DNA of 64,000 nucleotides from a virus (Duplodnaviria > Caudoviricetes), in IMG/VR virus record IMGVR_UViG_3300025398_000635, positions 9,666-73,665 of that record, one strand, 5' to 3'. This document shows, one piece after another, positions 18,690-32,940 of the stretch (position 1 is its first letter; every line of letters begins with the position of its first letter). The notes beneath the pieces were generated by a model. That model worked only from the letters and a program-made list of their open reading frames with translations, did not search any database and had not been told where the DNA came from. The translations under genes were made by a program, and so were the position numbers.

Positions 18690-19279
18690 TTAGGTTTTTT
18701 TAATTTTGAATTTATGTTTATTACTATTCTTCTTGATGTTGTGTTCGGAGTTGAACTTGAATGATACTGTAGCCCATCAAACCAAACAAAGGTATTTTCC
18801 TTTGGAGTAACAGTTTCTTCAACATTGTATACACGATCTGATTCGGACTCGTACCAATTGGTAGGTAAAAAATCAATACCATGCCTAAAACGTTCTTTAT
18901 AAAAGATTGTATCCCCATCTGAATCATTTAGATAAATCAATCCAGTCATGTGTGGAACATCCATATCAATGTGGGCTCCATGGACAAATGGGACATCTAA
19001 TGCAGTAATCATTCCTAATCTAATACGATAAATCAATGACAATGTTTGTCCGGTATTATCTAATGCAGATCTCACTGCTAGGTCCACTAGGTCATATAAT
19101 TCAGATGAAGGGCGACCATCTCCGTATATGTGATGTACATAACTAAAATTTAAATGTGCATTGTCGGCTGAAGAAGGATAGGCAGTATTAGGAGTAAAGA
19201 ACCAAGGTATTGAACCAAATACTTCCTGTTTTAATCTTTGAAAAATTAATGGTGAAATAGCATCGTGTTTGATATTCAT
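18644..19279 (-). CDS. 2OG-Fe(II) oxygenase; stop codon lies inside tRNA-Cys
   Basis: HIDM...LIYLNDSDGDT...FDGLQYHSS...RR. Confidence 0.8.
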   Translation of the reverse strand: MNIKHDAISPLIFQRLKQEVFGSIPWFFTPNTAYPSSADNAHLNFSYVHHIYGDGRPSSELYDLVDLAVRSALDNTGQTLSLIYRIRLGMITALDVPFVHGAHIDMDVPHMTGLIYLNDSDGDTIFYKERFRHGIDFLPTNWYESESDRVYNVEETVTPKENTFVWFDGLQYHSSSTPNTTSRRIVININSKLKKPKVWWQRGPMQGTANP

Positions 19280-19282
19280 GCA

Positions 19283-19861
19283 TTATCCTAATACGCTGTT
19301 AAATGCTATACTGATACGATCATGTCCGCTACGATTTGGTTGTGTATAGTGTAACAGCCAACTAGGAAATATAACTAATTTTCCAGCAGTCGGATGTTCA
19401 CTCCATTCTGCACTATTATAAAAATTATAGTTTTCAACAACACCATTTGGAATGGTATATACATGTTCAGCTACAGGATTATGCCATTCTAATTGGCCTG
19501 CTCCGGGTTCGGCTTTGACATAGAACACTCCTGAGAAAAAGCAACCAGGATGCTTGTGTGGTTTATTGTAGTGTCCTTCTTGATTGATATTAACCCAAGA
19601 GTCCTGGATCACCTGCTTGCAGTTATTTTTAAAGCCTAACTGCTGATGGAGTCCGTTAACCACTTGATCGATTTGATCGAACAATGGGCTGATAGCCGAG
19701 TCATTAGTGTCTAGATAGTGGCTATGATAGCCGCCTTCGTTACTGACGAACACTCCGGAATCTTGTTGTTGTACGTTATAGCAGTAGTCTTCAATAGACT
19801 TAAGATCAACTGTTAAAAAATCAATAAAGATAAAACTGCTAAAGATACTTTGTATTTGCAT
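19283..19861 (-). CDS. TIGR02466-like 2OG-Fe(II) oxygenase
   Basis: SWVNIN...HKHP..FSGVFYV...FPSWLLH...RISIAFN; start moved to ATG after tRNA-Val. Confidence 0.85.
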   Translation of the reverse strand: MQIQSIFSSFIFIDFLTVDLKSIEDYCYNVQQQDSGVFVSNEGGYHSHYLDTNDSAISPLFDQIDQVVNGLHQQLGFKNNCKQVIQDSWVNINQEGHYNKPHKHPGCFFSGVFYVKAEPGAGQLEWHNPVAEHVYTIPNGVVENYNFYNSAEWSEHPTAGKLVIFPSWLLHYTQPNRSGHDRISIAFNSVLG

Positions 19862-19870
19862 AAAGGTTCC

Positions 19871-19946
19871 TGGTAGGACGTGACGGGTTCGAACCGCCGA
19901 CATTCACGGTGTAAACGTGACGCTCTACCAACTGAGCTAACGTCCT
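19871..19946 (-). tRNA. trnV: tRNA-Val(UAC)
   Basis: Canonical cloverleaf with CCA. Confidence 0.95.
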
Positions 19947-19952
19947 AGATTC

Positions 19953-20186
19953 TTATTTTACTTTTTTAAAGTACTCTTGACCTTCGATCTGGCCATTTTG
20001 TAATTCTAGTAGTGCTGTGACAATAGTATGTGTATATTCATACTGAGTACTGGTCTTGTGATGACGACGTAGTTCTCGAGCGCGAGCACTAGCAGCCAAA
20101 ATCATATCGTACATACCAGTGCCCATAAGACGTACACACTTTTCACGATCAATTTCTGGGCCACGACTTGGAATTAGCTTTTTCAT
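19953..20186 (-). CDS. rpoZ: RNA polymerase omega subunit-like protein
   Basis: YDMILAASARAREL...IVTALLEL..G matches omega FDLVL.AA.RAR....V.AL.EI..G. Confidence 0.65.
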   Translation of the reverse strand: MKKLIPSRGPEIDREKCVRLMGTGMYDMILAASARARELRRHHKTSTQYEYTHTIVTALLELQNGQIEGQEYFKKVK

Positions 20187-20208
20187 ATAGATCCTTAGTT
20201 AAAACATT

Positions 20209-20237
20209 ATTGTAACATCATTACGCCGGAATGTCAA
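20209..20237 (-). promoter_or_regulatory. sigma70 promoter TTGACA-N17-TACAAT for the rpoZ-like gene
   Basis: Near-consensus. Confidence 0.75.
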
Positions 20238-20803
20238 ACATATTGTATATCAGCAGCCAAAATAAATCTATAGTCTTTACTTTGTGCAATGCCAGGTCTA
20301 TGCCATTGATTACTTGGATAAATTAACCAAGAATATTCTGTAGGACGTACAAAAAACTTTCCATCACCTTCTGGACCATTTGGTGCCATTTCAGTTCCGC
20401 ATGTATCACGATCTTCAACATCTGTAGGAATGTGTAGATAGTATATGCCGCTGATACTGTTACCACCATGTTTGTCATGATGATGCCAGTAGCTATCTCT
20501 ATTTTCCTGTGTATCTGTATTGGTCATAAAACTCCAAGCCATCATATTGGAAACCTTGACTTCGTGACCCAGATACATGAACACACTCATTAAAAAACTC
20601 ATGCGATACTTTAACCAAACTGGTTCTTTACGGGCAAAGATATTTTCTTTGGTTTGAAATTTTGGGGAATTTTCAAAGTAATTACCGCTGTCAATTATGT
20701 CTTTAATAACAAACATAGCCTGCCAGTTGTCATCCTCTGTAATTATACTAGAGAAATCATACTTTTTAAAAGTATCGTTAGAATCAATTATAGTGTGCAT
20801 CAA
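20234..20803 (-). CDS. 2OG-Fe(II) oxygenase-like protein
   Basis: WHHHD...SGIYYL...YPSNQWHRP...RFILAAD. Confidence 0.65.
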   Translation of the reverse strand: MMHTIIDSNDTFKKYDFSSIITEDDNWQAMFVIKDIIDSGNYFENSPKFQTKENIFARKEPVWLKYRMSFLMSVFMYLGHEVKVSNMMAWSFMTNTDTQENRDSYWHHHDKHGGNSISGIYYLHIPTDVEDRDTCGTEMAPNGPEGDGKFFVRPTEYSWLIYPSNQWHRPGIAQSKDYRFILAADIQYV

Positions 20804-21060
20804 GCAGTACGATGGATTAAGTGAAAACCAAACTGTGTTTGCACAGGCTGGCTAATAGAGCCAACAGGGGTTGCTAGAGTAGCATCTTCAAAAGGCTTAA
20901 CCATTTGGCCTGGACCAAAATCTCCTAGATCACCGCCACGAGCTTTGCTTGGGCATGAGCTATGTTGCATGGCCAGTTGACCGAAATTTAAAGGTGTTGC
21001 CTGTTCACGTAGTGATGTTGCTTGTTCTAATGTTGATACTAAAATATGACTTGCTTTCAT
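20800..21060 (-). CDS. ppiC: Parvulin-type peptidyl-prolyl isomerase
   Basis: ASHILV, HSSCPS..RGGDLG, GQMVKPFE, TQFGFHLI. Confidence 0.92.
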   Translation of the reverse strand: MKASHILVSTLEQATSLREQATPLNFGQLAMQHSSCPSKARGGDLGDFGPGQMVKPFEDATLATPVGSISQPVQTQFGFHLIHRTA

Positions 21061-21083
21061 GTTTTTTCCTTTTTATAAAACTT

Positions 21084-21160
<77 letters not shown>

Positions 21161-21162
21161 AA

Positions 21163-21321
21163 TTATCTGCCTCTACCTGCTGATTTTTTAGCAGGTTTAT
21201 TAACAATAACTTGATTGCCTCCGGCTGCCTTAGCGATGTCGCCCTTATTCTTTTTACTGCTTTGATTTCGACTAGCATTTTTCTTTTCTAATGCCGCTTT
21301 CAAAATATCACTAGTTCCCAT
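21163..21321 (-). CDS. Small basic protein (52 aa, MGTSDILKAALEKK...)
   Basis: Hand-called; GGAGA RBS. Confidence 0.65.
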   Translation of the reverse strand: MGTSDILKAALEKKNASRNQSSKKNKGDIAKAAGGNQVIVNKPAKKSAGRGR

Positions 21322-21331
21322 ACTATCTCCT

Positions 21332-21405
21332 TGGAGCGGGATATCGGAATCGAACCGATGACGAAAGATTGGAAATCTTTAGTTTTGCCCCTAAACTAAT
21401 CCCGC
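21332..21405 (-). tRNA. trnG: tRNA-Gly(UCC)
   Basis: Cloverleaf with CCA. Confidence 0.95.
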
Positions 21406-21413
21406 ATAATACT

Positions 21414-21489
21414 TGGTGCCCCTTGTCCGACTCGAACAGACCACCTACTGATTACAAATCAGTTGCTCTACCAGATGAGCTAAAGGGGC
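21414..21489 (-). tRNA. trnT: tRNA-Thr(UGU)
   Basis: Cloverleaf with CCA. Confidence 0.95.
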
Positions 21490-21497
21490 AAAAATTA

Positions 21498-21731
21498 TTA
21501 CTCTGCTACTACTTCTTCTACCGCCGACTCCACCACTTCTTCTACAACAGCCGGAGCCTTGTAGCTTGGAAGACTTTTCATAAATGCAATTCTGCGTTGG
21601 ATCATTGCCACGTGCTTTTTACGAGCACCACTTAGCAATTTTTCTAATTGCTCAATATTCAATGGCCCTAAACGAGTTTTACCGTTACGGGTTAGCATTG
21701 TACTTTTTGTTTTTTGTTTTGCGGCTGCCAT
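21498..21731 (-). CDS. Small hypothetical protein, basic N-terminus and acidic tail
   Basis: ORF with AGGAA RBS. Confidence 0.65.
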   Translation of the reverse strand: MAAAKQKTKSTMLTRNGKTRLGPLNIEQLEKLLSGARKKHVAMIQRRIAFMKSLPSYKAPAVVEEVVESAVEEVVAE

Positions 21732-21752
21732 AGTGTTTCCTTATTGTTTATT

Positions 21753-21896
21753 TTACTTAGTTTTAGGCTTTTTGTCTACTGGTCGTTTATGATCTTTTGT
21801 TTTTTTATTGCCAAAAATTTTATCCCAATTTTGATCAAAAACTTCTTTAGGCACAGTAAATGGTCTTGCCTTACTACCTTTTCCGCCGTCACTCAT
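21753..21896 (-). CDS. Small phage protein (47 aa, MSDGGKGSKARPF...NWDKIF)
   Basis: Hand-called; AGGAGA RBS; GGKGS.RP motif I associate with phage micro-proteins. Confidence 0.65.
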   Translation of the reverse strand: MSDGGKGSKARPFTVPKEVFDQNWDKIFGNKKTKDHKRPVDKKPKTK

Positions 21897-21908
21897 AATG
21901 ATCTCCTA

Positions 21909-22295
21909 CTATCTTTTTAATCCTCTTGCTTGTCTACCGTTACCTTTGTTTTTAGCAACAAACGTATCTGTTTGACTGTGGCAATTAGGACACATAAGTC
22001 TCAAATTCTTTGGAGTGTTATTACTAGCATCTCCGTCTATATGATCTAATTGTAATGCCAACGGCTGGTTATTGTAAACCCCAGTATTGCCACATTCAAC
22101 ACATTGATATCCAAATAGGTGTTTTAAAATTCGATGTAATGTTCTTCTATTAGAAACTTCACCTTTTTTAAATTTGGGCAAAGTTTCGTGTTCTAATTGA
22201 TAATCTTGTTGACAAGCATTATTACAATACTTGTTCATATGATTCTTCTTTTTTACATTTTCTTTTTTACAACTAATACATTTAAAATATTCCAT
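21909..22295 (-). CDS. HNH endonuclease with Zn-binding Cys motifs
   Basis: CxxC, LQLDHIDG...N...NLRLMCPNCH. Confidence 0.92.
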   Translation of the reverse strand: MEYFKCISCKKENVKKKNHMNKYCNNACQQDYQLEHETLPKFKKGEVSNRRTLHRILKHLFGYQCVECGNTGVYNNQPLALQLDHIDGDASNNTPKNLRLMCPNCHSQTDTFVAKNKGNGRQARGLKR

Positions 22296-22296
22296 T

Positions 22297-22333
22297 ATGT
22301 AGTCCTCTGTACTATTTATACAGAGCTCTACAT
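22297..22333 (-). promoter_or_regulatory. Hairpin with T4 late promoter TATAAATA at the loop and the HNH RBS (GAGGA) in the stem
   Basis: ATGTAG-AG-CTCTGTA-TAAATAG-TACAGAG-GA-CTACAT. Confidence 0.8.
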
Positions 22334-22347
22334 TTTCTACTAATTAA

Positions 22348-22423
22348 TGGTGGAGGTGACAGGACTTGAACCCGCTACCTTGACCTTGCAAAGGTCCTGC
22401 TCTACCAGATGAGCTACACCCCC
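22348..22423 (-). tRNA. trnA: tRNA-Ala(UGC)
   Basis: G3:U70 pair, cloverleaf, CCA. Confidence 0.95.
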
Positions 22424-22471
22424 ATTATTCTTAAAACACTACATTTAAAACTTGGCTCCCCGTGAATCTAT

Positions 22472-23236
22472 TTAATTTTTTACTAACAAGAATGTTTTAG
22501 ATGTGGTTTGGACCCCGCCGTATTGGTCATCTATTACTTCTAATATTTGGCATCCTGCATCTTCAGCTAATTCATCTATTAACTGTTCTGTAAGGGCATG
22601 CATTTCTATAAACGCATCAGTGCCTTTTAACCGATGGTATGCTAGATGTTGATCAAGGCTGAATTGATATGGTCCATTTAATTGACTATCAGTTAATATT
22701 TGAAAATAAGCAATACCATTAGATTTAAGATTTCCCAAAGCTACATCTAACGTGTATAGTTGTATAGGTGGTGTATTATGCTGTAAGGTTATTACAGAAT
22801 AAAAACAATCATAATCAACTATATTCTTAACATCAGTATATTTTTCTATTAATCTAGTCGATACATTGGTAATACTGTGATTACTAAGATAGTCTTGACA
22901 TATTGCTAAATTATGCTGATCGATATCTGTCGCTGTAATACTATCAAAAACAGTGGACAGCTGACTAGTAACACGTCCGACACCGCAACCTAATTCAAAA
23001 CAATGTCCCGAAGGTGTTAGACCATTACGGTCGCATGCTGTTAGAAAATCTTCTAGATAATCTCCGCCAGATTGATAAAACTGTTTTATCTTGTCTTGAT
23101 CCGACAAACTAATAAATTCGTCTTTGGCCAATACTGACCAATATGGCAAGTTTTGACTTACAAGACTGTACTGAGTACGAGTTATATCAAATAACTGATT
23201 GAGTATCGAATGTGATGCTGTAACATCTATCTTCAT
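22472..23236 (-). CDS. Class I SAM-dependent methyltransferase
   Basis: FELGCGVGRV, TATDID, YSVITLQH; start moved to ATG 23236 after tRNA-Asn. Confidence 0.85.
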   Translation of the reverse strand: MKIDVTASHSILNQLFDITRTQYSLVSQNLPYWSVLAKDEFISLSDQDKIKQFYQSGGDYLEDFLTACDRNGLTPSGHCFELGCGVGRVTSQLSTVFDSITATDIDQHNLAICQDYLSNHSITNVSTRLIEKYTDVKNIVDYDCFYSVITLQHNTPPIQLYTLDVALGNLKSNGIAYFQILTDSQLNGPYQFSLDQHLAYHRLKGTDAFIEMHALTEQLIDELAEDAGCQILEVIDDQYGGVQTTSKTFLLVKN

Positions 23237-23241
23237 AATGC

Positions 23242-23317
23242 TGGCTCCCCAACCAGGACTTGAACCTGGGACCAACAGATTAACAGTCTGCTGCTCTACC
23301 GACTGAGCTATCGGGGA
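23242..23317 (-). tRNA. trnN: tRNA-Asn(GUU)
   Basis: Cloverleaf with CCA. Confidence 0.95.
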
Positions 23318-23324
23318 ATAATCC

Positions 23325-23528
23325 TTACTCTATTACAGTTGCACTTGTACTAGTTTGAGCGTAGTTACCGCCTGGACGCTCTTTCTTAACTGTCTTTGGT
23401 ACAACTGCCGCATATAATTCTGCTTCAATTAAACACTTCTTCCATGCACCGCGCTTATTTTTGTCAGTGAATGTGGCTAATTGTCTTTTTGAATCTTTAC
23501 TTAGGTTAAACGTCTTACCTGGTTTCAT
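23325..23528 (-). CDS. Small hypothetical protein
   Basis: ORF between tRNAs, AAGGT RBS. Confidence 0.6.
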   Translation of the reverse strand: MKPGKTFNLSKDSKRQLATFTDKNKRGAWKKCLIEAELYAAVVPKTVKKERPGGNYAQTSTSATVIE

Positions 23529-23549
23529 AATTTACCTTTTTTTAAATTT

Positions 23550-23643
23550 TGGCGGAGAACGAGGGATTCGAACCCTCGATACAGGTTTAAGCCCGTATGC
23601 CTCCTTAGCAGGGAGGTGCCTTCGACCACTCGGCCAGCTCTCC
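23550..23643 (-). tRNA. trnS: tRNA-Ser(GCU)
   Basis: Long variable arm, G73, CCA. Confidence 0.95.
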
Positions 23644-23644
23644 G

Positions 23645-23791
23645 TTATCTTGTTACCTTACGTATTAATTTATACCAATAAAATTTTATACCCCTAAAAG
23701 ATGGCAGCCAGGAAAAAAAATCAAAATCGCTAGCTACTTCTTTCGGGATACTTCCATAGGCCTTGTTTAATGTATCGTCTTGCTTTGACAT
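23645..23791 (-). CDS. Small hypothetical protein (48 aa, MSKQDDTLNKAYG...)
   Basis: Hand-called; AAGGAAG RBS. Confidence 0.55.
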   Translation of the reverse strand: MSKQDDTLNKAYGSIPKEVASDFDFFSWLPSFRGIKFYWYKLIRKVTR

Positions 23792-23808
23792 ACGACTTCC
23801 TTAGTTAT

Positions 23809-23893
23809 TGGTAGGACTGGGCGGGGTCGAACCGCCATGGCGTGAGCCGCAGCATTTTAAGTGCTGTGAGTATACCTGTTTCTCCACAGTCCC
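23809..23893 (-). tRNA. trnL: tRNA-Leu(UAA)
   Basis: Variable arm, A73, CCA. Confidence 0.9.
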
Positions 23894-23897
23894 GTTT

Positions 23898-24206
23898 TTA
23901 TTTCCACAACTTCAGCAAGTTAATAAACTCGGGGAAGTCATTATTATAACGTGGACACAAGGCAATAGCAAGCTCTGCATTGTCCATACGGCTTTCAGTA
24001 ACCACGACGTGATCGCTTAGTTGTTTAATCATAGCATACTCTGCAGGCGTTACTGCACATGTTACTTTCTTAAAACTCGAAGCTAGCCAATCATGCATCA
24101 CAGGTTTATCTTTAAATTCTAAGTAGCACATAAGTCCTGCATGTGCCGCGGCATTCATTGCCATGCCCGGAGCAGTACCTTCTTTGATACAAATATACAT
24201 CTTCAT
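23898..24206 (-). CDS. Peptidyl-tRNA hydrolase, Pth2 family
   Basis: MYICIK...G.A....AHA; W....FKKVTCAV; E....T..AIALCP. Confidence 0.7.
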   Translation of the reverse strand: MKMYICIKEGTAPGMAMNAAAHAGLMCYLEFKDKPVMHDWLASSFKKVTCAVTPAEYAMIKQLSDHVVVTESRMDNAELAIALCPRYNNDFPEFINLLKLWK

Positions 24207-24352
24207 TCTTCAACTCCAAAATGTTGTTTAAACAGGTCGAGCCGGATACTGTTATCTTTATACACACGAGATACTTCAACACCGTTCTCTACTACGGTGG
24301 TCATATCATCCCAGATGATGGTAGCACGATAGTTTAACTCTGGCTCGTTCAT
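24203..24352 (-). CDS. Small hypothetical protein (49 aa)
   Basis: Hand-called; coupled to neighbours by ATGA overlaps. Confidence 0.55.
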   Translation of the reverse strand: MNEPELNYRATIIWDDMTTVVENGVEVSRVYKDNSIRLDLFKQHFGVEE

Positions 24353-24606
24353 TCTTCGAATCCTAAAACTGAAATTTTCTTAACCATATCACCTAACCGT
24401 AGTTCCACATATAAACGACGCTCGTCTCCGTTAAACATTCCGTCGCTAACTACAGCCGTATTGGCGATTTCATTAAACAATAACTCGGCGAACTTATCCA
24501 AGTATTCTTCAGGAGTATAGTTGTCTATCATTTCTCTGCCACTATCGTCCCATAATGTAAATCCTATACCAGCATCGAGAGCAAGTTTTTTAATCTTCTC
24601 GTTCAT
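24349..24606 (-). CDS. Hypothetical phage protein (MNEKIKKLA...)
   Basis: ORF, coupled start. Confidence 0.6.
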   Translation of the reverse strand: MNEKIKKLALDAGIGFTLWDDSGREMIDNYTPEEYLDKFAELLFNEIANTAVVSDGMFNGDERRLYVELRLGDMVKKISVLGFEE

Positions 24607-24830
24607 TGTGTTCTCCGCTTCATCCAAGTGTAATCTACGCCATCTGGTGTTTTACCATTAACTACTGCATCTACTCCCGGCTTGCCAATTGAGTTAGGAT
24701 TTTCACTAACCATTGTGACAAATGTACGGCCTAGTGACCGATGGAATTGTGTAGCAGATAATGCTACACTCATATCCTCAAACACTTCTGCATGCGGAGT
24801 ATCGTCTACTGTGTAATATACTTTAAACAT
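24603..24830 (-). CDS. Hypothetical phage protein
   Basis: ORF directly after a promoter. Confidence 0.65.
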   Translation of the reverse strand: MFKVYYTVDDTPHAEVFEDMSVALSATQFHRSLGRTFVTMVSENPNSIGKPGVDAVVNGKTPDGVDYTWMKRRTQ

Positions 24831-24835
24831 TCTTT

Positions 24836-24864
24836 ATTATACTTTCTCTATCTGTGTATGTCAT
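24836..24864 (-). promoter_or_regulatory. sigma70 promoter ATGACA-N17-TATAAT
   Basis: Near-consensus. Confidence 0.65.
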
Positions 24865-24870
24865 TTTATT

Positions 24871-24946
24871 TGGCGTCCCCCCACGGTGACGATCCGCGCT
24901 CTTCGGTTTTGGAGACCGATGTTCTGCCAACATGAACTAGGGAGAC
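24871..24946 (-). tRNA. trnW: tRNA-Trp(CCA) with atypical T-loop (AUCGUCA)
   Basis: Anticodon arm UCGGU-CUCCAAA-ACCGA, G73, CCA. Confidence 0.85.
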
Positions 24947-24950
24947 AATT

Positions 24951-25040
24951 TGGCGGAAACGGTGAGATTCGAACTCACGGAGCTTTTACACTCGACAGTT
25001 TTCAAGACTGTTGCAATAAACCGGACTCTGCCACATTTCC
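24951..25040 (-). tRNA. trnS: tRNA-Ser(UGA)
   Basis: Long variable arm, G73, CCA. Confidence 0.95.
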
Positions 25041-25045
25041 AATAT

Positions 25046-25119
25046 TGGTTGCGGGACCTGGAATCGCACCAGGGACTAGGGCTTATGAGACCCTCGAGAT
25101 ACTCCTTCTCTATCCCGCG
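25046..25119 (-). tRNA. trnfM: Initiator tRNA-fMet(CAU)
   Basis: C1:A72 mismatch, three G:C pairs in the anticodon stem. Confidence 0.85.
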
Positions 25120-25128
25120 ATAGATTAG

Positions 25129-25226
25129 TAACTGTTATTGTTGTGTCGGGAAACAGTTAAACCCCGTGAGCGCAGCCCATCCTGTTTTCGCGTCAGCGGA
25201 TGCGGAATATGATTACAGGTCCGCAT
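25129..25226 (-). ncRNA. Candidate structured RNA with pseudoknot potential
   Basis: ATGCGGA/TCCGCAT stem whose loop CCTGT pairs with downstream ACAGG; second stem TAACTGTT/AACAGTTA. Confidence 0.35.
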
Positions 25227-25233
25227 TAAATTT

Positions 25234-25318
25234 TGGTGCCCCCCAAGGGACTCGAACCCTCACACCTTGCGATACCAGAACCTAAATCTGGCGCGTCTAC
25301 CAATTTCGCCAAAGGGGC
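25234..25318 (-). tRNA. trnL: tRNA-Leu(UAG)
   Basis: Variable arm, CCA; late box TATAAGTA at 25326-25333. Confidence 0.95.
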
Positions 25319-25336
25319 ATGCTTTTACTTATACTA

Positions 25337-25547
25337 TTAGTTGTATTGTCATGTTATGGACTAGGCCCAACCCTAGTCGTTTGCTTTTACTGTCCTATGC
25401 TTACTATATGGGATGATCAGTCCGATCTCGTCATAGTCCAACTCGCGTTAGTTAGTCCACAGTCTAGGACCGTAGCATTTGCCGGCTCTCCCTAACGTTG
25501 AAAGTGCATTATGCGATACACGCATTTTTCCATAACAATACAACTAA
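25337..25547 (-). ncRNA. Candidate 211-nt structured ncRNA directly after tRNA-Glu CCA
   Basis: Long terminal helix (TTAGTTGTATT..GTTATGGA / TCCATAAC..AATACAACTAA), internal hairpins, no credible ORF. Confidence 0.55.
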
Positions 25548-25623
25548 TGGCGCTCCCAGCGAGATTCGAACTCGCGTACTCACCGTGAAAGGGTGATGTC
25601 CTAGGCCTCTAGACGATGGGAGC
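25548..25623 (-). tRNA. trnE: tRNA-Glu(UUC)
   Basis: Cloverleaf with CCA. Confidence 0.95.
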
Positions 25624-25667
25624 CATGTACTACTTGAATTGTTAATGAACTTAACTACTAAACAACT

Positions 25668-25696
25668 ATTATACATATTAGTTAGGTTAATGTCAA
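25668..25696 (-). promoter_or_regulatory. sigma70 promoter TTGACA-N17-TATAAT upstream of tRNA-Glu
   Basis: Perfect consensus. Confidence 0.85.
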
Positions 25697-25703
25697 CCTT
25701 TAT

Positions 25704-25780
25704 TGGCCGGCCCTGAGAGATTCGAACTCCCAACCGCTGGTTTCGAAGACCAGAACTCTATCCAATTGAGCTAAGGGCCG
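25704..25780 (-). tRNA. trnR: tRNA-Arg(UCG)
   Basis: Cloverleaf with CCA. Confidence 0.93.
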
Positions 25781-26357
25781 TTAATTTGAATATGCCCTCA
25801 ACGCCTGTGCTAGACCATCCGGGATAATCTTCTAATTTAAATATTTTTCCTTTACTGTCATTTACACAATCTTCTTTGAGAAGAATGTGTGTATTTAAAT
25901 TATATTTCTGAATAATATTAAAGAGTGATTCGTATCCTAACGGTCTGACACGTACACATATGTCCATAGCGCCACCACACATATAAATGTTATCTATTTG
26001 ATTATTCTTTATAAACATTTCAAATTCCCACGGATAATGCATGGCGATTTGTTGTTTTTTGCTAGACCAATTTAATATAATTTTATCAGTTCTTTGAAAT
26101 GATTTAGGGTCCACGTTTGCTAATATATTTTTATTATTGTATAATTCCTCACCTAATAATTTTAGACTATTAGCATGCCATATTGTATTTGATTCATCGA
26201 TAGAATCATACGTTGCTAGTATAATAGTTTTAATATTGTCATTAGATTCTACAAATTTTTTAATTTTGTTGAACAGGATATAGTCGTAGTCAAATGGAAT
26301 TTTAAACTTCGACAACCATGTTTCCCAACAATCGATTAATATAGCGATATCATTCAT
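25758..26357 (-). CDS. Isochorismatase/cysteine-hydrolase-like protein; ends inside tRNA-Arg
   Basis: ILIDCW...IYMCGGAMDICV; start moved to ATG 26357. Confidence 0.5.
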   Translation of the reverse strand: MNDIAILIDCWETWLSKFKIPFDYDYILFNKIKKFVESNDNIKTIILATYDSIDESNTIWHANSLKLLGEELYNNKNILANVDPKSFQRTDKIILNWSSKKQQIAMHYPWEFEMFIKNNQIDNIYMCGGAMDICVRVRPLGYESLFNIIQKYNLNTHILLKEDCVNDSKGKIFKLEDYPGWSSTGVEGIFKLTALSSIG

Positions 26358-26378
26358 AATGTTACTTATTAAGAGTAA

Positions 26379-26461
26379 TGGTGCCCCTGACGGGATTCGA
26401 ACCCGCAACCTAACTGTCTCTTGAACAGCCGCGTCTTCCTAGTATATTGCGCCACAGGGGC
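26379..26461 (-). tRNA. Atypical Leu-like tRNA (anticodon AAG in a 7-nt loop, or CAA in a 9-nt loop)
   Basis: Perfect acceptor and T arms and CCA; enlarged D loop; C33; short variable region. Confidence 0.7.
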
Positions 26462-26463
26462 AT

Positions 26464-26558
26464 TGGTAGTAGATAAAGGTTACGATCCTTTCCGTTGCAG
26501 CCCATCTGACCACTCTCCCAGGTTTATAAAACCTAGCCGCACACCAGTGCTATCTACC
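26464..26558 (-). tRNA. Atypical tRNA with UAU anticodon and long variable arm
   Basis: 7-bp acceptor, 4-bp D stem with 4-nt loop, 6-bp anticodon stem, about 26-nt V region, T-loop AUCGUAA, CCA. Confidence 0.7.
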
Positions 26559-26566
26559 GTTGTATT

Positions 26567-26643
26567 TGGGGTGGCTGATGGGAATCGAACCCACGAGTAT
26601 CGGAATCACAATCCGAGGTCTTAACCGCTTGACGACAGCCACC
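26567..26643 (-). tRNA. trnH: tRNA-His(GUG)
   Basis: G-1:C73, CCA. Confidence 0.95.
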
Positions 26644-26704
26644 ATTGTGTAGGGCTTCCACCTACTCCCACCTCGCTTTAAAGTCTGCGTGTCCAAGACT
26701 TAAT

Positions 26705-26779
26705 TGGTCCGGCTAGGAAGAATCGAACTTCCGTTACAAGATTAGAAGTCTCGTGTATTATCCACTATACGATAGCCAG
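26705..26779 (-). tRNA. trnR: tRNA-Arg(UCU)
   Basis: Cloverleaf with CCA. Confidence 0.92.
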
Positions 26780-26782
26780 GTT

Positions 26783-26856
26783 TGGCAGGGGATATAAGAA
26801 TCGAACTTATACTGAGGGAATCAAAATCCCGTGTGCTACCACTACACCAATCCCCA
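26783..26856 (-). tRNA. trnQ: tRNA-Gln(UUG)
   Basis: Cloverleaf, weak 1:72 pair, G73, CCA. Confidence 0.92.
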
Positions 26857-26863
26857 ATTGAAA

Positions 26864-26907
26864 TAAAAAACTCCCCGCAGTGTGCTGTCTATGACAAGCA
26901 GGGGGAG
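26864..26907 (-). terminator. Terminator-like hairpin after the HNH gene
   Basis: CTCCCC...GGGGAG followed by TTTTTT. Confidence 0.55.
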
Positions 26908-26917
26908 GTGTGTGTTC

Positions 26918-27313
26918 TTAGTTTAGGGGAAGTCCTCTTGCGGCTCTTCCGCTACCTTTATTTCTTGCACTAAAAGTATCAGTTTGACTGTGACAATTAG
27001 GACATATTAATCTTAAATTACTTGGACTATTATTGCCAGCATTTCCATCAGTGTGATCGACTTGTAATGTTAACAGTTTGCCATTATGTTCGCTAATCCC
27101 ACAACAACTACACTTGTATCCGCTGAGTTCTGTCAGCACTTTCCTAATTGTTTTGCGATCGCTTACTTCACCTCGATTAAATCTATTAATTGTTTCAGTA
27201 AACATTCCCTTAGCACTACAGGTATTGCTACAGTATACATTCATTTTTTGATGAGACCATTTTGATTCGGTTCCACACGTTTTACAAAGATAAGTTTTGG
27301 TAGAGTTATTCAT
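26918..27313 (-). CDS. HNH endonuclease, paralog of 21909..22295
   Basis: CKTC, LQVDHTDG...N...NLRLICPNCHSQTDTF; start ATG 27313 lies inside hairpin GTAGAGT/ACTCTAC. Confidence 0.92.
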   Translation of the reverse strand: MNNSTKTYLCKTCGTESKWSHQKMNVYCSNTCSAKGMFTETINRFNRGEVSDRKTIRKVLTELSGYKCSCCGISEHNGKLLTLQVDHTDGNAGNNSPSNLRLICPNCHSQTDTFSARNKGSGRAARGLPLN

Positions 27314-27342
27314 ATATTTATTTATCACTCTACCAAATAAAT

Positions 27343-27416
27343 TGGAGCGGGTAGCGAGAATCGAACTCGCGAATAAACCTTGGCAAGGTTTCAGGTTACC
27401 ATTACATCATACCCGC
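27343..27416 (-). tRNA. trnG: tRNA-Gly(GCC)
   Basis: Cloverleaf with CCA. Confidence 0.95.
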
Positions 27417-27421
27417 ATAAA

Positions 27422-27673
27422 TTGTTATTAGAAAAGGACCCTGAAAGTTTTGGTCTCCTGAAACGGAAAGACATGGCTGCCCGGACTTACAGATCCGCTT
27501 TACTGGTCCAGCAAACGTGGAGCATATATGTCATCAACAGATTTATGCTGTAATCACTATCTGTCATATTTGACAAGTGTAAAGTTTATAACTTTTGCTA
27601 GACTCTCCTTCCGGGATTGTCTATCCACCCTTGCGGGACACCGTTAATGCCTTGAGTCCTTTACTAATAACAA
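27422..27673 (-). ncRNA. Candidate 252-nt structured ncRNA with its own late promoter
   Basis: Terminal helix TTGTTATTAG-TAAAGGAC / GTCCTTTT-CTAATAACAA; GNRA hairpin CCC-GCAA-GGG; TATAAGTA 5 nt upstream. Confidence 0.6.
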
Positions 27674-27695
27674 CTAGATACTTATACTAATAACA

Positions 27696-27770
27696 TGGTG
27701 GTAATGGCTGGATTCGAACCAGCACCTTGCTCCGTATGAAGGAGGTGCACGACCATTATGCTACATTACC
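27696..27770 (-). tRNA. tRNA with CAU anticodon (elongator Met or lysidine Ile2)
   Basis: Cloverleaf, paired 1:72, CCA. Confidence 0.9.
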
Positions 27771-27773
27771 ATT

Positions 27774-27851
27774 TGGTGCCTTGTGGTGGACTCGAACCAC
27801 CGACCCCTGCGTTATCAACACAGTGCTACTAACCAACTGAGCTAACAAGGC
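27774..27851 (-). tRNA. trnI: tRNA-Ile(GAU)
   Basis: Cloverleaf with CCA. Confidence 0.95.
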
Positions 27852-27855
27852 ATTT

Positions 27856-27932
27856 TGGCGGAACGGACGGGACTCGAACCCGCAACTTCCGCCGTGACAG
27901 GGCGGTGCTCTAACCAATTGAACTACCATTCC
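27856..27932 (-). tRNA. trnD: tRNA-Asp(GUC)
   Basis: Cloverleaf, G73, CCA. Confidence 0.95.
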
Positions 27933-27938
27933 TAATTC

Positions 27939-28022
27939 TGGTGGGCTGTACTGGGATCGAACCAGTCATGCCAGAGGCGTCGGATTTACAGTCCGATGAA
28001 TCACCATTGATTCTTCCAGCCC
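27939..28022 (-). tRNA. trnY: tRNA-Tyr(GUA)
   Basis: Variable arm, A73, CCA; G7:A66 mismatch. Confidence 0.9.
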
Positions 28023-28409: not shown

Positions 28410-28425
28410 TTTAATCTCCTTAAAA

Positions 28426-28457
28426 GCAAAAACCCCAGGGTTTTTAATCCTGGGGTT
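28426..28457 (-). terminator. Intrinsic terminator of the leader attenuator
   Basis: AACCCCAGG-ATTAAAAAC-CCTGGGGTT-TTTGCTTTT; 5' strand competes with GGGGTTCCGT at 28490-28499. Confidence 0.85.
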
Positions 28458-28485
28458 CTGTGTAATCTTATATTGTAAAACTAGA

Positions 28486-28596
28486 CTATACGGAACCCCT
28501 CAAACGATCATTACTTAGACCAAAGCATAACACTGACCATGTTGGATAGGCCATGTGTTCTATATTGGAAATAATTATCTGTTGTAAGTGTTGCAT
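28486..28596 (-). CDS. Leader peptide MQHLQQIIISNIEHMAYPTWSVLCFGLSNDRLRGSV (36 aa)
   Basis: ATG 7 nt after -10 (leaderless); last codons and stop overlap the antiterminator strand. Confidence 0.7.
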   Translation of the reverse strand: MQHLQQIIISNIEHMAYPTWSVLCFGLSNDRLRGSV

Positions 28597-28603
28597 AATC
28601 TTT

Positions 28604-28632
28604 ATTATACTGTCTCTTATATTCGTTGTCAA
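28604..28632 (-). promoter_or_regulatory. sigma70 promoter TTGACA-N17-TATAAT heading the tRNA array
   Basis: Perfect consensus. Confidence 0.9.
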
Positions 28633-28698: not shown

Positions 28699-29700
28699 TT
28701 ATTTTTCTACTAGATTATCTTTAAAAATATTCCAGCATGACTGCCATGTCCATTTCTTACTATTAAGTTTAACAGTTTTTCGATCTAATGTCAATGCCGT
28801 TTGAACTGCTAATTTTAAATCAGTATTCATCGAACCTGTGACACCTTCTTCGAGTATATCAATTGGTCCCGGAACCGGGTAACCTGCAACAGGAGTACCG
28901 CAGGCCAATGCTTCTATAATAACAATTCCAAACGTATCAGTGCGACTAGTAAATACAAATACATCAGCATTGGCATAGTATTCAGCAAGACTGCTCCCTT
29001 TTTTTACTCCTGCAAAAATTACATCGGGATACTTGCTAGCTAGCTCTTTACGATACGGACCGTCACCTACTACAATCTTTGTAGCACTGGGCCAATCTAA
29101 TTCGCAAAAATCATCTATTCCTTTTTCCTTGCTAACACGTCCAACACTTAAGAGTATAGGACGACCTGCTATAGTTTTTCCTCTTAGATTACTTTTAAAC
29201 ACTGTGCGATCTACTCCGCGTGTCCAAGGAACAACGTCACCTGTGAATCCATGGTTGCGTAGATCGCCGACCATGGTCTGTGTAGTGGTTAGCACACGAC
29301 CCGAATGTTTATGGAACCAACGCACATACCAATAGGTCCATTTTATAGGTATACCATAAAGCTCTTTTAGGAATTCTGGAAACTTTGTGTGATAGCTGGT
29401 ATTGTATTTGTAACCTTTACGATCACAGTATACGCGAGCAGCAAACCCTAAGGGGCCTTCTGTGGCAATGTGAATATAATCCGCATCCATCGCCTCAATC
29501 TTCTTGCCCATCGATCGGGGGAACGAGAGTTTAACTTCAGGATAGCCAGGGCAATCAATATAACTGAACTGCCCGGGATCAAGATATACAATATTATAGC
29601 CACTATCGCTAGCCAGAGTTTCGATGCTTTTGAAAGTTGTGACCACTCCATTAACTTGATCTCTTAAATTGTCAGTTACTATCAGTATCGTCTTGGGCAT
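28699..29700 (-). CDS. agt: GT4 glycosyltransferase, Agt-like diacylglycerol glycosyltransferase
   Basis: ILIVTD..DQVNGVV, HIATEGPLG, SYHTKFPE, GRVSKEK, FVFTSRTDTFG.V.IEA.ACG. Confidence 0.75.
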   Translation of the reverse strand: MPKTILIVTDNLRDQVNGVVTTFKSIETLASDSGYNIVYLDPGQFSYIDCPGYPEVKLSFPRSMGKKIEAMDADYIHIATEGPLGFAARVYCDRKGYKYNTSYHTKFPEFLKELYGIPIKWTYWYVRWFHKHSGRVLTTTQTMVGDLRNHGFTGDVVPWTRGVDRTVFKSNLRGKTIAGRPILLSVGRVSKEKGIDDFCELDWPSATKIVVGDGPYRKELASKYPDVIFAGVKKGSSLAEYYANADVFVFTSRTDTFGIVIIEALACGTPVAGYPVPGPIDILEEGVTGSMNTDLKLAVQTALTLDRKTVKLNSKKWTWQSCWNIFKDNLVEK

Positions 29701-29772
29701 CTTTGTTTATAAAATAATTTAAAAAACTAGCAACTACTAATACTATGGCAAGACCTAAAATAAAATATCCCA

Positions 29773-30657
29773 TTATTGTATCCTAAATTTAACGTACTCT
29801 GTTATTATATCTGCTACATCTACTGAACAGTATTTTTCAAACCCACTGAATCCAGGATTTGAATTAGCTTCACATACACGGAATCCACGCTTGTCAAATA
29901 ATAGATCGACACCAGCAATGTCTAGATTTAAGGCACGAGCAGTTTCACGAGCTAGATATTCTATTTCTTCAGTTAAGGGATAGTTCTCTCCAGTACCACC
30001 ATTTGTGATATTAGCACGGAAATCACCATCGGGCGCTGTACGCTTCATAGCCCCGACGACCTTGCCACCGATAACCAACACACGTAGATCTTCTCCAGGA
30101 TGATCATTTAGATATTCCTGTACAACCATGGTTTTCTTATTGCCTAGGTTGTCAATAAATTCCATTAGTTTTTTGTAGTCACGCTTCTTTTCGCAGAGAT
30201 AAACACCTTCACCATATGATCCAGTAACAACTTTGACCACGCAAGGAAACCCAATATTATTTTCTACAAGATGATCGTCGATAGGTAATCGTACCATCAT
30301 AGTGTTGGGAATAGCGATACCGGCACGACTTAAAATCTGACTAGTACGTAATTTATCTTTAACTGTTTCTATTGGTAATGATCCGTTGATACAAGGAACA
30401 CCAGCTTGTTCAAAATGTCTAACAACTGCTAATTGGAACGGCAGTATACCAGCACCTAACCTTACTAATACTAGTTTAGGTAGTTCCATATCTTGACCTT
30501 GATACTTAATGCCCTTATGGATATCACGGTCGACGATGATATCAAAATCATCAGGATGACACATGCGAGCTGTAATGCCCTTGGCTGCAAAACTTTCTAC
30601 TAGTCTATTTGATTCGTATTCGTTACGATCAAGTTTAGTTAGGATTATTACGGTCAT
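29773..30657 (-). CDS. rimK: RimK-family ATP-grasp ligase
   Basis: DKLRTSQIL, GSYGEGV, VQEYL, DLRVLVIGG, FRANITNGG, AGVDLL, EANSNPG. Confidence 0.88.
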   Translation of the reverse strand: MTVIILTKLDRNEYESNRLVESFAAKGITARMCHPDDFDIIVDRDIHKGIKYQGQDMELPKLVLVRLGAGILPFQLAVVRHFEQAGVPCINGSLPIETVKDKLRTSQILSRAGIAIPNTMMVRLPIDDHLVENNIGFPCVVKVVTGSYGEGVYLCEKKRDYKKLMEFIDNLGNKKTMVVQEYLNDHPGEDLRVLVIGGKVVGAMKRTAPDGDFRANITNGGTGENYPLTEEIEYLARETARALNLDIAGVDLLFDKRGFRVCEANSNPGFSGFEKYCSVDVADIITEYVKFRIQ

Positions 30658-31412
30658 TAATCATGTCCTTTCGTCCATGTAATTATCTCCCAACGACCAT
30701 CATGGTGTTCAACTAAGGCCGTCATTGACTCTACCCAGTCACCGTCATTCATGTATGTAACACCATCGATATCTTTAATTTCTGCGTGATGTATGTGTCC
30801 ACATATTACACCATCAAATCCACGTTTTTTACAGTAAGCGGCTAGATTACGTTCAAATTGAAACATAAAGTCTGCGGCCTTCTTAACTCTGTTCTTGAGA
30901 TACTTACTCAAACTCCAATACCCGAGCCCAAGTTTATGCCTAACAAAATTAAATCTGCTGTTCCAATCTAACACCAGGTCATACAACTTATCGCCTAAAA
31001 ATGCTAGCCAAGGAGCAAGACGAGTAATGCCGTCGAACAAGTCCCCGTGAGTTACAAGGTAATGTTTACCGTCTAGTCCTATATGTTCTGTTTGATTGAC
31101 TATTTCAACTTGTCCGAATCCTAAACCATAAGGAATAAGTGGACGTAAAAATTCATCATGATTACCTGCTACATATATTACTCTTGTACCTCGCTTGGCA
31201 TGACCTAGGATACGACGTATGGCATTTGAATGACTTTGTTTCCAACGCCACTTGTTTTGTTGGATCTTCCAAGCATCGATAATGTCGCCTACAAGGTAAA
31301 GTGTTTCACAGGTGTTGTGTTTGAGAAAGTTGTTGAGCTCTTCAGCTTTGCAGTCTCGAGTACCGAAGTGTATGTCCGAGACGAAAATACTGCGATATGT
31401 AGTTGGTTTCAT
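30657..31412 (-). CDS. plcP: PlcP-like Mn-dependent phospholipase C (often annotated UDP-2,3-diacylglucosamine hydrolase)
   Basis: SDIHFG, LVGDIID, GNHDE, HGDLFD, GYWSLS, CGHIHH, NDGDWVES. Confidence 0.8.
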   Translation of the reverse strand: MKPTTYRSIFVSDIHFGTRDCKAEELNNFLKHNTCETLYLVGDIIDAWKIQQNKWRWKQSHSNAIRRILGHAKRGTRVIYVAGNHDEFLRPLIPYGLGFGQVEIVNQTEHIGLDGKHYLVTHGDLFDGITRLAPWLAFLGDKLYDLVLDWNSRFNFVRHKLGLGYWSLSKYLKNRVKKAADFMFQFERNLAAYCKKRGFDGVICGHIHHAEIKDIDGVTYMNDGDWVESMTALVEHHDGRWEIITWTKGHD

Positions 31413-31452
31413 GCCAATATTTATCGCTAGTTATTCTAGTGCTATATTACAT

Positions 31453-31584
31453 TTATTTTACAGCTTCAGTATGTTTGTGATCAAGACTTTTCTTTAGTAG
31501 TTTGAACCAGATCTTTTTGGCTTTCTCGAGATTGTGTTCAATTTCGGCCTTGTATAATTTCATAACTAGTTTTTTAACTTTCAT
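31453..31584 (-). CDS. Small basic protein (43 aa, MKVKKLVMKLYK...)
   Basis: Hand-called; GAGGAG RBS; sigma70-like promoter upstream. Confidence 0.6.
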   Translation of the reverse strand: MKVKKLVMKLYKAEIEHNLEKAKKIWFKLLKKSLDHKHTEAVK

Positions 31585-31659
31585 GATTGACTCCTCTTTG
31601 TAATCAAAGTGTAACATATTATTTACTCAATGTCAAGAAATAAAAGATTACAGTCAAAA

Positions 31660-31681
31660 GAAATGGAACCGAAGTTCCACT
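31660..31681 (-). terminator. UUCG-loop terminator after rubredoxin
   Basis: TGGAAC-TTCG-GTTCCA followed by TTTCTTTT. Confidence 0.7.
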
Positions 31682-31738
31682 GTGGATTACGGATCCCACG
31701 ACACCTTATTTTGTGCCCGCATTTTATTTAGCGTGTGA

Positions 31739-31876
31739 TCAGAATTCCAGTGTTACTAATTCATAATCCGATTTGCTAACACCGCATTCTGGACAACATA
31801 CATCATCTGGTAAACTGTTATAGTCTTCTACTGATAAAATATGTCCACATACTACACAACGATATACCTGTTCCAT
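31739..31876 (-). CDS. Rubredoxin-like protein (45 aa)
   Basis: YRCVVCG...CPECG; TAATG-coupled to rubrerythrin. Confidence 0.85.
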   Translation of the reverse strand: MEQVYRCVVCGHILSVEDYNSLPDDVCCPECGVSKSDYELVTLEF

Positions 31877-32325
31877 TATAGGGTCTCCTTTACTTTTTGA
31901 TATGCTTCTGCATGACGCTTCTCAACTTTAGCCAGCGCGGCAAAACGTTTTTCAGCTTTGGCCAACACTTGAGCAAATTGATCAGCATGTTCTTTTGATT
32001 CATCAATTTGATGTTGTGCTTCGACGGCAGCTTGTTGATTACCTTCTTCAACTGCTTCTGCTAACATTGTTGGATACATGTGAGTATATTCTTCAGTCTC
32101 ACCATCAATAGCCAACTGTAGACATTCTTTAGTTGAAGGTTTACCAATTAGTAATTCTAAGTGACCCCAAGCATGCAGGATCTCTTGATCTGCTGTGTGT
32201 TCAAAATGTTTAGCTACATCTTCAAAACCTTCTTCTCGAGCAATTTTTGCAAAATAGCGATATTTGATGTGTGCCTGACTTTCACCAGCAAGTGCATCTG
32301 CTAAATTTTTAAGTGTGATAGACAT
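31876..32325 (-). CDS. rbr: Rubrerythrin (ferritin-like diiron domain)
   Basis: LAGESQAHIKYRYFA, E..HA, AIDGETEE, E..HA. Confidence 0.9.
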   Translation of the reverse strand: MSITLKNLADALAGESQAHIKYRYFAKIAREEGFEDVAKHFEHTADQEILHAWGHLELLIGKPSTKECLQLAIDGETEEYTHMYPTMLAEAVEEGNQQAAVEAQHQIDESKEHADQFAQVLAKAEKRFAALAKVEKRHAEAYQKVKETL

Positions 32326-32380: not shown

Positions 32381-32466
32381 ATTGTAATAGTATTTACTAA
32401 TAAGATCAAGCATTTTAATTGATTTTTTCAATAATTATTTTAATAACGGTAATTGATTTTTTTAAT
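32381..32466 (-). promoter_or_regulatory. Promoter TTGATC-N17-TACAAT with upstream ATTG-N7-CAAT and ATTG-N7-TAAT boxes
   Basis: Boxes at 32418-32432 and 32452-32466, LysR/OxyR-type spacing. Confidence 0.4.
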
Positions 32467-32476
32467 AACGAAATTG

Positions 32477-32501
32477 AAAAAGAAACCCGCCGAAGCGGGT
32501 T
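32477..32501 (-). terminator. Intrinsic terminator after the tmRNA coding piece
   Basis: AACCCGC-TTCG-GCGGGTT followed by TCTTTTT. Confidence 0.85.
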
Positions 32502-32504
32502 CTG

Positions 32505-32862
32505 CTATTTTGGGTGACAAGGTATAACTACCTCGCAAGTGCAGTTTCTTAGGCTGCTAGTGCAAATGCGTCGTCGTTAAGAGCGACATCAACTTGCATG
32601 TACTTGAATGTATTTGCTTTTGCATTTACGATATTTGCTTGATTTACAGTCATCGCCTACTCTGTTGCCTCTTTCGCTATCTCACCATGTCGAAACCTTG
32701 TCATCCCCATCATAAAGATACATATCGCATAGTTTATAAAACAGGCTATGCCCCACATATACTGCCAGTGCCAGTTTTCAAACATACTATATCCTTATGG
32801 TGGAGATGCCGGGAATCGAACCCGGGTCCACAGTGCCTTCACTACGAAGGAATTACAACAAT
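32505..32862 (-). ncRNA. ssrA: Circularly permuted (two-piece) tmRNA
   Basis: Acceptor piece with T arm ending CATCTCCACCA at 32798 precedes the 5' end GGGGATG at 32708; G3:U70; 89-nt intervening segment; outer ends approximate. Confidence 0.92.
32549..32623 (-). CDS. tmRNA tag AKANTFKYMQVDVALNDDAFALAA (24 aa)
   Basis: Resume codon GCA after GTAAAT; ALAA-stop degron. Confidence 0.8.
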   Translation of the reverse strand, partial: AKANTFKYMQVDVALNDDAFALAA

Positions 32863-32865
32863 TCT

Positions 32866-32940
32866 TTACTTACGCTTTTTCAACGTTCTGCGGGCAGTTG
32901 CCTTAACAGATCGTGAATGATGCGCACGAAACTTTGCCAT
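32866..32940 (-). CDS. Basic micro-protein MAKFRAHHSRSVKATARRTLKKRK (24 aa)
   Basis: Hand-called; TAATG-coupled. Confidence 0.65.
   Translation of the reverse strand: MAKFRAHHSRSVKATARRTLKKRK

Follow-up and report, generated by a model that had tools for sequence, protein, structure and literature searches.

Leader-peptide attenuators of amino-acid operons include trpL, hisL, pheL and leuL, the multivalent thrL and ilvL, and pheM of pheST, and single codons give only weak pauses in the classical examples. The pheL leader has been cited as an attenuator of this kind (PMC3082878). Broader sensing is known from the whiB7 (wblC) uORF of Actinobacteria, translation of which forms the terminator, while stalling or loss of the start codon leads to antitermination (PMC10274678). 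The shortages sensed are set by the amino-acid content of the uORF, which in M. smegmatis includes 19 of the 20 amino acids, and removal of a single Trp codon significantly weakened the Trp response; only Ala is enriched in the whiB7 uORF (25-40%), and the M. tuberculosis uORF lacks several residues (PMC10274678). The toiL uORF of E. coli topAI-yjhQ is multipurpose, with stalls at several positions relieving repression (PMC12121999). In Anabaena, the trn operon (L-array), a mobile array of 26 tRNA genes, is induced under translational stress and controlled by TrcR (PMC8421152; PMC10272220). As for phages, why they carry tRNA genes has been under debate for 50 years, with codon compensation and replacement of cut or degraded host tRNAs as the alternatives (PMC10264068). 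Phage tRNAs are presented as counter-defence in work on PARIS (PMC11464382), retrons (PMC11555353) and anticodon-loop escape (PMC10264068), and in the portions of these papers that were available we found no account of a cis-acting sensor regulating phage tRNA genes. Nor did we find a paper on attenuation of tRNA genes, in a search that left subscription journals mostly uncovered.

The locus considered here lies in a 64,000-nt stretch (hereafter the window) of a 73.7-kb virus record from a large uncultured freshwater phage, whose relatives measure 340-400 kb when complete; among the cultured phages in INPHARED, neither the leader nor the 55-aa gene behind it was matched. All window coordinates given below are on the minus strand. 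A betaproteobacterial host may be inferred from the type of the permuted tmRNA (32458-32920), from the phage DnaK, which is 70-72% identical to Neisseria and Ralstonia proteins, and from the single match among GTDB genomes, a homologous leader on a 6-kb contig in a Polynucleobacter MAG, which we infer to be phage DNA. The tmRNA tag is unusually long (25 aa), and similar long tags are found in the relatives L001, L008, L014, L027 and L029. Upstream of the leader (28699-32325) lie genes for a glycosyltransferase, a RimK-like ligase and a metallophosphoesterase, each with a PHROG match, as well as a rubrerythrin-like gene; this set is not kept beside the leader in the upstream flanks that were viewed.

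The tRNA array itself (18612-28022) has small ORFs interspersed and covers 18 amino acids, without Lys or Phe. The earlier note had counted 25 tRNA genes, which is the number obtained from 24 ARAGORN predictions plus one gene found only by Rfam (26382-26461). The lack of a Lys tRNA, also pointed out in that note, extends to the whole 73.7-kb contig, and Phe tRNA is likewise absent from the array, although the leader contains a Phe codon. The contig covers only part of the genome, which leaves room for Lys or Phe tRNAs outside it. The Rfam-only gene is tRNA-like (39.8 bits), with a distorted anticodon arm, and by eye is most like Leu-CAA. A tRNA with a long variable arm (26464-26558) was called as Ile with anticodon TAT, an identity that remains unchecked; TAT-anticodon tRNAs are present in 30 of the 55 arrays described below, and the UAU anticodon is rare in bacteria. 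The array also holds two related ORFs (26918-27313 and 21909-22295) that are HNH endonuclease-like on the basis of motif only.

Ahead of the array, a sigma70 promoter with a 17-nt spacer (28632-28604) matches the consensus at 12 of 12 positions and thus deserves its earlier description as perfect. The ATG at 28596 lies, as claimed, 7 nt past the -10 box, and the leader message is therefore probably leaderless. A CTAAATA box resembling a T4-type late promoter (28655-28649) stands just upstream; its role is inferred, and boxes of this type occur upstream of 93/140 leaders versus 2 on the antisense strand, which suggests that early and late transcription both enter the attenuator. The ORF (28596-28486) has 36 codons and, in agreement with the peptide reported earlier, uses 19 of the 20 amino acids, with Lys missing; the array supplies a tRNA able to read each of its codons except TTT (Phe). 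Codons 1-31 (28596-28504), the sensing part, contain all 19 residues, and a ribosome stalled there should leave unoccupied segment 2 (28499-28483), the 5' strand of the antiterminator, which overlaps the final codons and the stop. Segment 3 (28468-28452) is the 3' strand of the antiterminator and also the 5' arm of the intrinsic terminator, which comprises a hairpin and a U-rich tail (28458-28422). The pairing of 9 in 10 positions described in the note belongs to an antiterminator hairpin that extends further (28499-28452; -19.4 kcal/mol, z -4.6 on folding), and the terminator hairpin (28458-28430; -18.1 kcal/mol, z -4.4) is slightly less stable; the two share a strand and exclude each other, as had been proposed. 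The further claim that both Arg boxes are sampled stands only insofar as an AGG codon is present, since this codon lies inside segment 2 and could not sense. The residue that comes last into the set, Arg (CGT), is borderline, with only about 5 nt between its codon and segment 2.

We consider it likely that the leader is a ribosome-coupled attenuator through which slow decoding raises transcription of the tRNA genes. RNA polymerase would start at the sigma70 promoter, with a host ribosome translating the 36 codons behind it. If decoding were prompt, the ribosome at the stop codon would cover segment 2, segments 3 and 4 would pair, and transcription would end near 28425. If the ribosome waited at a codon of the sensing part for a scarce charged tRNA, or did not load, segment 2 would pair with segment 3 and the polymerase would continue through the 55-aa gene and a structured RNA to the tRNA genes; the tRNAs made in this way would then relieve the shortage and close a feedback loop. 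In the window phage, read-through would add to transcription from internal promoters and would not be its only source. There are no RNA or bench data behind this reading: that the leader is translated, that the RNA switches, how large the boost is and what sets it off in nature (cleavage or decay of host tRNAs, or starvation) are all inferred, while the anatomy, the coding constraint, the selection for a full amino-acid set, the covarying exclusive hairpins, the spacing and the leader-array match were computed from the data described below.

Homologous loci were collected by searching with the 55-aa gene that follows the terminator, which brought in 37 viral and 62 metagenomic loci, and with a pattern for the two RNA strands that is blind to the peptide, which gave at least 120 further loci. 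Among the matches listed, about 115 loci are owed to the peptide-blind pattern, and duplicate removal left 143 distinct leaders. The earlier note had proposed comparing such homologues for length, residue diversity and stem covariation, and all three hold: length is conserved at 34-52 codons, diversity is retained despite a median identity of 30%, and antiterminator and terminator both covary. A promoter with 11-12 of 12 consensus positions precedes 132/143 leaders, and in every one of the 143 the stop codon is located 9-27 nt past the point where segment 2 begins. The leaders are under coding constraint (pN/pS 0.45 in 40 disjoint close pairs, with a third-position excess). Wherever the downstream DNA extends for 1.5 kb or more (101 loci), a tRNA gene lies within those 1.5 kb in every case. 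The only pattern match with a disrupted-looking leader is L121, which has no Trp and no start codon at the usual distance, with intact hairpins. A version of the pattern with another terminator loop found no matches, a scan for further close relatives with long contigs returned only those already known, and the leader matched no Rfam family. The leader tree, built on 50 columns, is poorly resolved.

Both stems of the switch vary in a manner that keeps them paired. In a 61-row alignment, 97.7% of the paired cells are retained as pairs in the antiterminator and 100% in the terminator, and double changes (27 and 23, respectively) exceed all 500 shuffles and all slid controls. One segment 2/3 pair is A-U in 77, G-C in 52, G-U in 10 and mismatched in 4 of the 143 leaders, and a second is C-G in 125, U-A in 14 and U-G in 4; the terminator has three pairs with compensatory changes in the 61 leaders. 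Since the search pattern fixed the GGG/CCC cores, this covariation rests on the free positions only, which in the antiterminator means two pairs. The antiterminator region folds with a family median z of -5.5. With a ribosome placed at the stop, the terminator is predicted to form in 69/69 representatives, and with segment 2 free, either because the ribosome is stalled or because the RNA is untranslated, the antiterminator is predicted to win in 84%. Folding of the representatives predicted no 1:2 protector hairpin (median probability of upstream pairing of segment 2, 0.27). Antitermination of untranslated RNA without a conserved protector, as in whiB7, is what would be expected of a generic sensor of the rate or coupling of translation, one that reacts to any slowdown, also by antibiotics, ribosome inactivation or hibernation, and for which the amino-acid set of the leader is incidental; the device proposed here would itself react to these stresses. 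It is the composition of the leaders that speaks to this possibility.

All 20 amino acids are present in 116/143 leaders and exactly 19 in another 22, so that 138/143 have at least 19. Complete sets occur in 4.2% of phage protein windows, in 3.7% of sequences with the leaders' own composition and in 11.5% with uniform composition; column resampling yields 15% and single-crossover chimeras 53%. A tree-aware null with site-specific evolution from a complete ancestor gives 16.5 +/- 6.7% complete, with a maximum of 44% in 2000 runs. The other two sense frames are complete in 1 and 0 of 143 leaders, and clustering at 50% identity leaves 24/38 with the full set and 36/38 with 19 or more residues. 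Cys is found in 98% of leaders and is a single copy in 89%; its distance from the conserved Trp takes 24 different values, and an internal Met is retained in 96%. Residues present as the sole copy are replaced less often (47/496, 9.5%) than repeated ones (537/3800, 14.1%; p 0.004). Thus, the leaders are selected for a complete amino-acid set, with rare residues shifting position. It is worth noting that the family statistics, not the window alone, are decisive on whether completeness exceeds chance, because at least 19 residues in 36 codons are found in 4.4% of phage protein windows, which is modest for a single leader. The earlier note had emphasized a run of 16 different residues, and its arithmetic (1.5e-4) was correct, but the run is not a family trait: the mean longest run of distinct residues is 11.1 versus 10.9 after order shuffling. 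At the level of codon boxes, there is no excess for Thr or Val and, under a within-column null, a weak or absent one for Arg. Ala makes up 5.3% of leader residues versus a background of 6.5%. The lack of Lys in the window leader is, judging from related sequences, most likely a loss, because L184, L192 and L213, which are among its nearest kin, are complete with just 35 codons; codon 11 is Lys in L001 and Asn in the window leader.

The position of the residues also fits the geometry of the switch. In 70/143 leaders, the codon supplying the last new residue stops 7 or 9 nt short of segment 2; 7-9 nt is roughly how far a ribosome extends past its A site. Much of this peak stems from one conserved Glu, and it therefore does not represent 143 independent observations. 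The alphabet is complete at least 6 nt before segment 2 in 71% of leaders versus 14% after shuffling of codon order.

Leader content follows array content. We fetched 20 kb behind 60 leaders, a sample enriched for incomplete ones, and kept the 55 arrays that end well inside the fetched DNA. For residues missing from the sensing part, the corresponding tRNA is absent in 25/41 cases (61%), compared with 43/1059 (4%) for the others (OR 37); restricting the comparison to a single leader from each cluster (16-25 lineages) gives an OR of 10-23 (permutation p <= 0.004). Parsimony and clustering, on which the count rests because the tree is poorly resolved, place the match in about 7-8 lineages, with at least 3 independent losses forced by strong branches. 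The earlier coupling of the missing Lys codon to the missing tRNA-Lys thus generalizes beyond the window. Residue and tRNA are both missing for Asp, Glu and Tyr in L221/L229, for Ala, Asp, Glu and Gly in L147/L232/L237/L238, for Cys in L227, Trp in L233, Phe in L226, Val in L224, and Phe and Val in L222, in addition to Lys in the window. Among relatives ranked by the 55-aa gene, L158 comes next after L001; its leader lacks Phe and Lys, the two tRNAs absent in the window, but its contig is too short for its own array to be checked. The same comparison at the isoacceptor level gives 7/17 versus 1/38 for Arg AGR and 2/2 versus 0/53 for Ser AGY (one lineage for Ser), and there is no match at box level for Thr or Val. 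Exceptions exist: 16 of the 41 missing residues do have a tRNA, mostly Val or Met, but also Lys, Met and Arg in L231 and Asp in L223, and in the reverse direction Phe is probed by the window leader without a tRNA in the array.

In L035 and L069, the unprobed tRNAs (Asp, Glu, Tyr and Ser-GCT) lie upstream, behind a second leader. This second attenuator (L035, 2905-3082; L069, 4525-4700; plus strand) has its own terminator and a sequence unrelated to the main leader, and its 34 codons include Asp, Glu, Tyr and Ser codons near the end. It precedes a Ser-GCT/Glu/Tyr/Asp/Met block and is complementary to the main leader, which argues that the putative object of monitoring is the tRNAs and not only the amino acids. 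A generic sensor of translation would need no complete alphabet, whereas completeness lies far above all nulls and follows array content down to the isoacceptor; we therefore regard that explanation as unlikely.

A different question is which genes the attenuator serves. The earlier note held that it switches on the 25-tRNA operon, and the attenuator does head the array, but the array has strong promoters of its own. One of these (28059-28031; 11/12, extended -10) lies 38 nt before the first tRNA gene, tRNA-Tyr, and would start transcription at its 5' end, bypassing the attenuator; promoters hold the same position (-34 to -38) in L239, L247, L261 and L262. A 12/12 promoter precedes tRNA-Glu (25696-25668), and the strong promoters downstream of the terminator in the window are those at 28059, 25696, 24864 and 20237. 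Across the 55 arrays, 161 strong promoters are in sense and 2 in antisense orientation, and 50/55 arrays have internal promoters. Because of these promoters, the attenuator is better seen as a booster than as the sole switch of the tRNA genes. In the window, we infer that nothing but the 55-aa gene and the structured RNA depends on it alone and that for the tRNAs it is a booster of unmeasured size, and its effect on tRNA output there may be only modest. Strong promoters 34-41 nt before tRNA genes were observed at 28059-28031 in the window and in L112, L065, L143 and L058; transcription from them would begin at or next to the mature 5' end, and the tRNAs concerned might need no RNase P.

The first gene behind the terminator (28409-28242, with a Shine-Dalgarno sequence at 28420-28416) encodes a helical protein of 55 aa and unknown function. 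It follows 47/129 leaders and has 1218 homologues, all unnamed; searches of PHROG, Pfam, Atlas and Foldseek gave no match, and the structure model reached a pTM of 0.44. Between this gene and tRNA-Tyr lies a structured non-coding segment of about 220 nt (28241-28023; z -2.8), without an Rfam match, which is possibly a separate small RNA. It shares a motif with L220, and the motif is found within 400 nt of 31/129 leaders. The real output could be these first cistrons, with a shortage still being sensed and the tRNAs made mainly from their own promoters, as the promoter 38 nt before tRNA-Tyr, others inside the array and the 50/55 arrays with internal promoters would allow. We find this improbable, since a promoter precedes the first tRNA in only 12/55 arrays, the 55-aa gene follows only a minority of leaders, and the leader matches the whole array, closely so in L221/L229, which have no internal promoter. 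Restricting the target to the tRNAs before the first internal promoter fits worse (OR 7.7 versus 37 for the whole array), with 409 probed residues lacking a tRNA in that block. The mirroring of the whole array by the leader suggests that read-through matters for all of it, to an extent that is unknown.

Two elements of the peptide are conserved in position, a Trp and an Asn-Asp-Arg motif. These, together with a pN/pS below 1, would suit a functional or ribosome-arresting peptide; alternatively, the 170-nt terminated RNA might act in trans, or a protein factor might switch the hairpins. The Asp-Arg part of the motif, however, is fixed at the codon level (123/124 leaders spell it GAT CGY), and 82/124 have a 6-bp partner for it upstream, against a null of 27 +/- 4, which points to RNA structure, probably a pause hairpin. 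The candidate has a family median z of -1.6 and would be weak in the window (28539-28505, with arms 28539-28534 and 28510-28505; z -0.2). Given also that rare residues wander and that nulls preserving the columns are complete in only 15%, a role of this kind for the peptide, the terminated RNA or a protein factor is very unlikely. A chance ORF over a plain terminator, for which the window alone would leave room (probability about 4% for 19/20 in 36 codons), is already refuted by 143 homologues that share the ORF, the stop position, the composition and the covarying stems.

Returning to a ribosome-coupled attenuator that boosts tRNA transcription, what would trigger it in nature can only be reasoned. 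Loss of tRNA is a more sensible trigger than lack of an amino acid, because extra tRNA helps little when the amino acid is lacking; no result bears this out. A specific version, a serious possibility that we hold only tentatively, is on-demand counter-defence, in which the leader tracks each replaceable tRNA down to the isoacceptor, and cleavage of any host tRNA by an immune nuclease, or tRNA decay driven by the infection, would elicit more phage tRNAs in a self-limiting manner. A sensor wired to its array makes the debate about the purpose of phage tRNAs directly testable, as one reporter can show which insults trigger it. Induction of phage tRNAs by slow decoding would mark them as a response to stress rather than a constitutive supply for codon usage, and if the counter-defence reading is true, the codon list of each leader would be a record of the tRNAs that the lineage must defend. 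The 200-nt element could also be used as a small reporter of defence systems that target tRNAs. In addition, selection for completeness of the alphabet rather than for sequence would be missed by ordinary conservation analysis, and attenuation, so far a matter of one amino acid and its pathway, would be extended to all codons and the tRNA pool.

Among known systems, the whiB7 uORF is the closest precedent, with broad sensing and read-through by default in the absence of translation, the latter being a folding prediction in the phage. Unlike the phage leader, it controls a transcription factor, its completeness is not conserved, and no regulated tRNA set is matched to it; no homology is implied. 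The phage leader is not Ala-rich, and the gene downstream of it has no family match. The toiL uORF differs in acting through translational repression and Rho, in sensing antibiotics and in controlling a toxin-antitoxin pair. The Anabaena L-array is regulated at initiation by a protein repressor, and the strings "attenuat" and "leader" do not occur in PMC8421152. No T-box riboswitch was matched in Rfam at the gathering score. The counter-defence tRNAs, as far as the available portions of those papers go, give the likely purpose of the array, namely the replacement of host tRNAs cut during infection. With the trp/his class, the phage leader shares the promoter, a short ORF over segment 2, exclusive 2:3 and 3:4 hairpins, a U tail and possibly a pause hairpin, and it meets the criteria of that class in having a constrained ORF, an ORF end over the antiterminator strand and hairpins that exclude each other. 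Members of the class have runs of one to three kinds of codon, a 1:2 protector and a biosynthesis or synthetase target. The phage leader departs from them on all three counts, with each of about 20 residues used once or a few times in place of control-codon runs, no predicted protector, and a tRNA array as its target.
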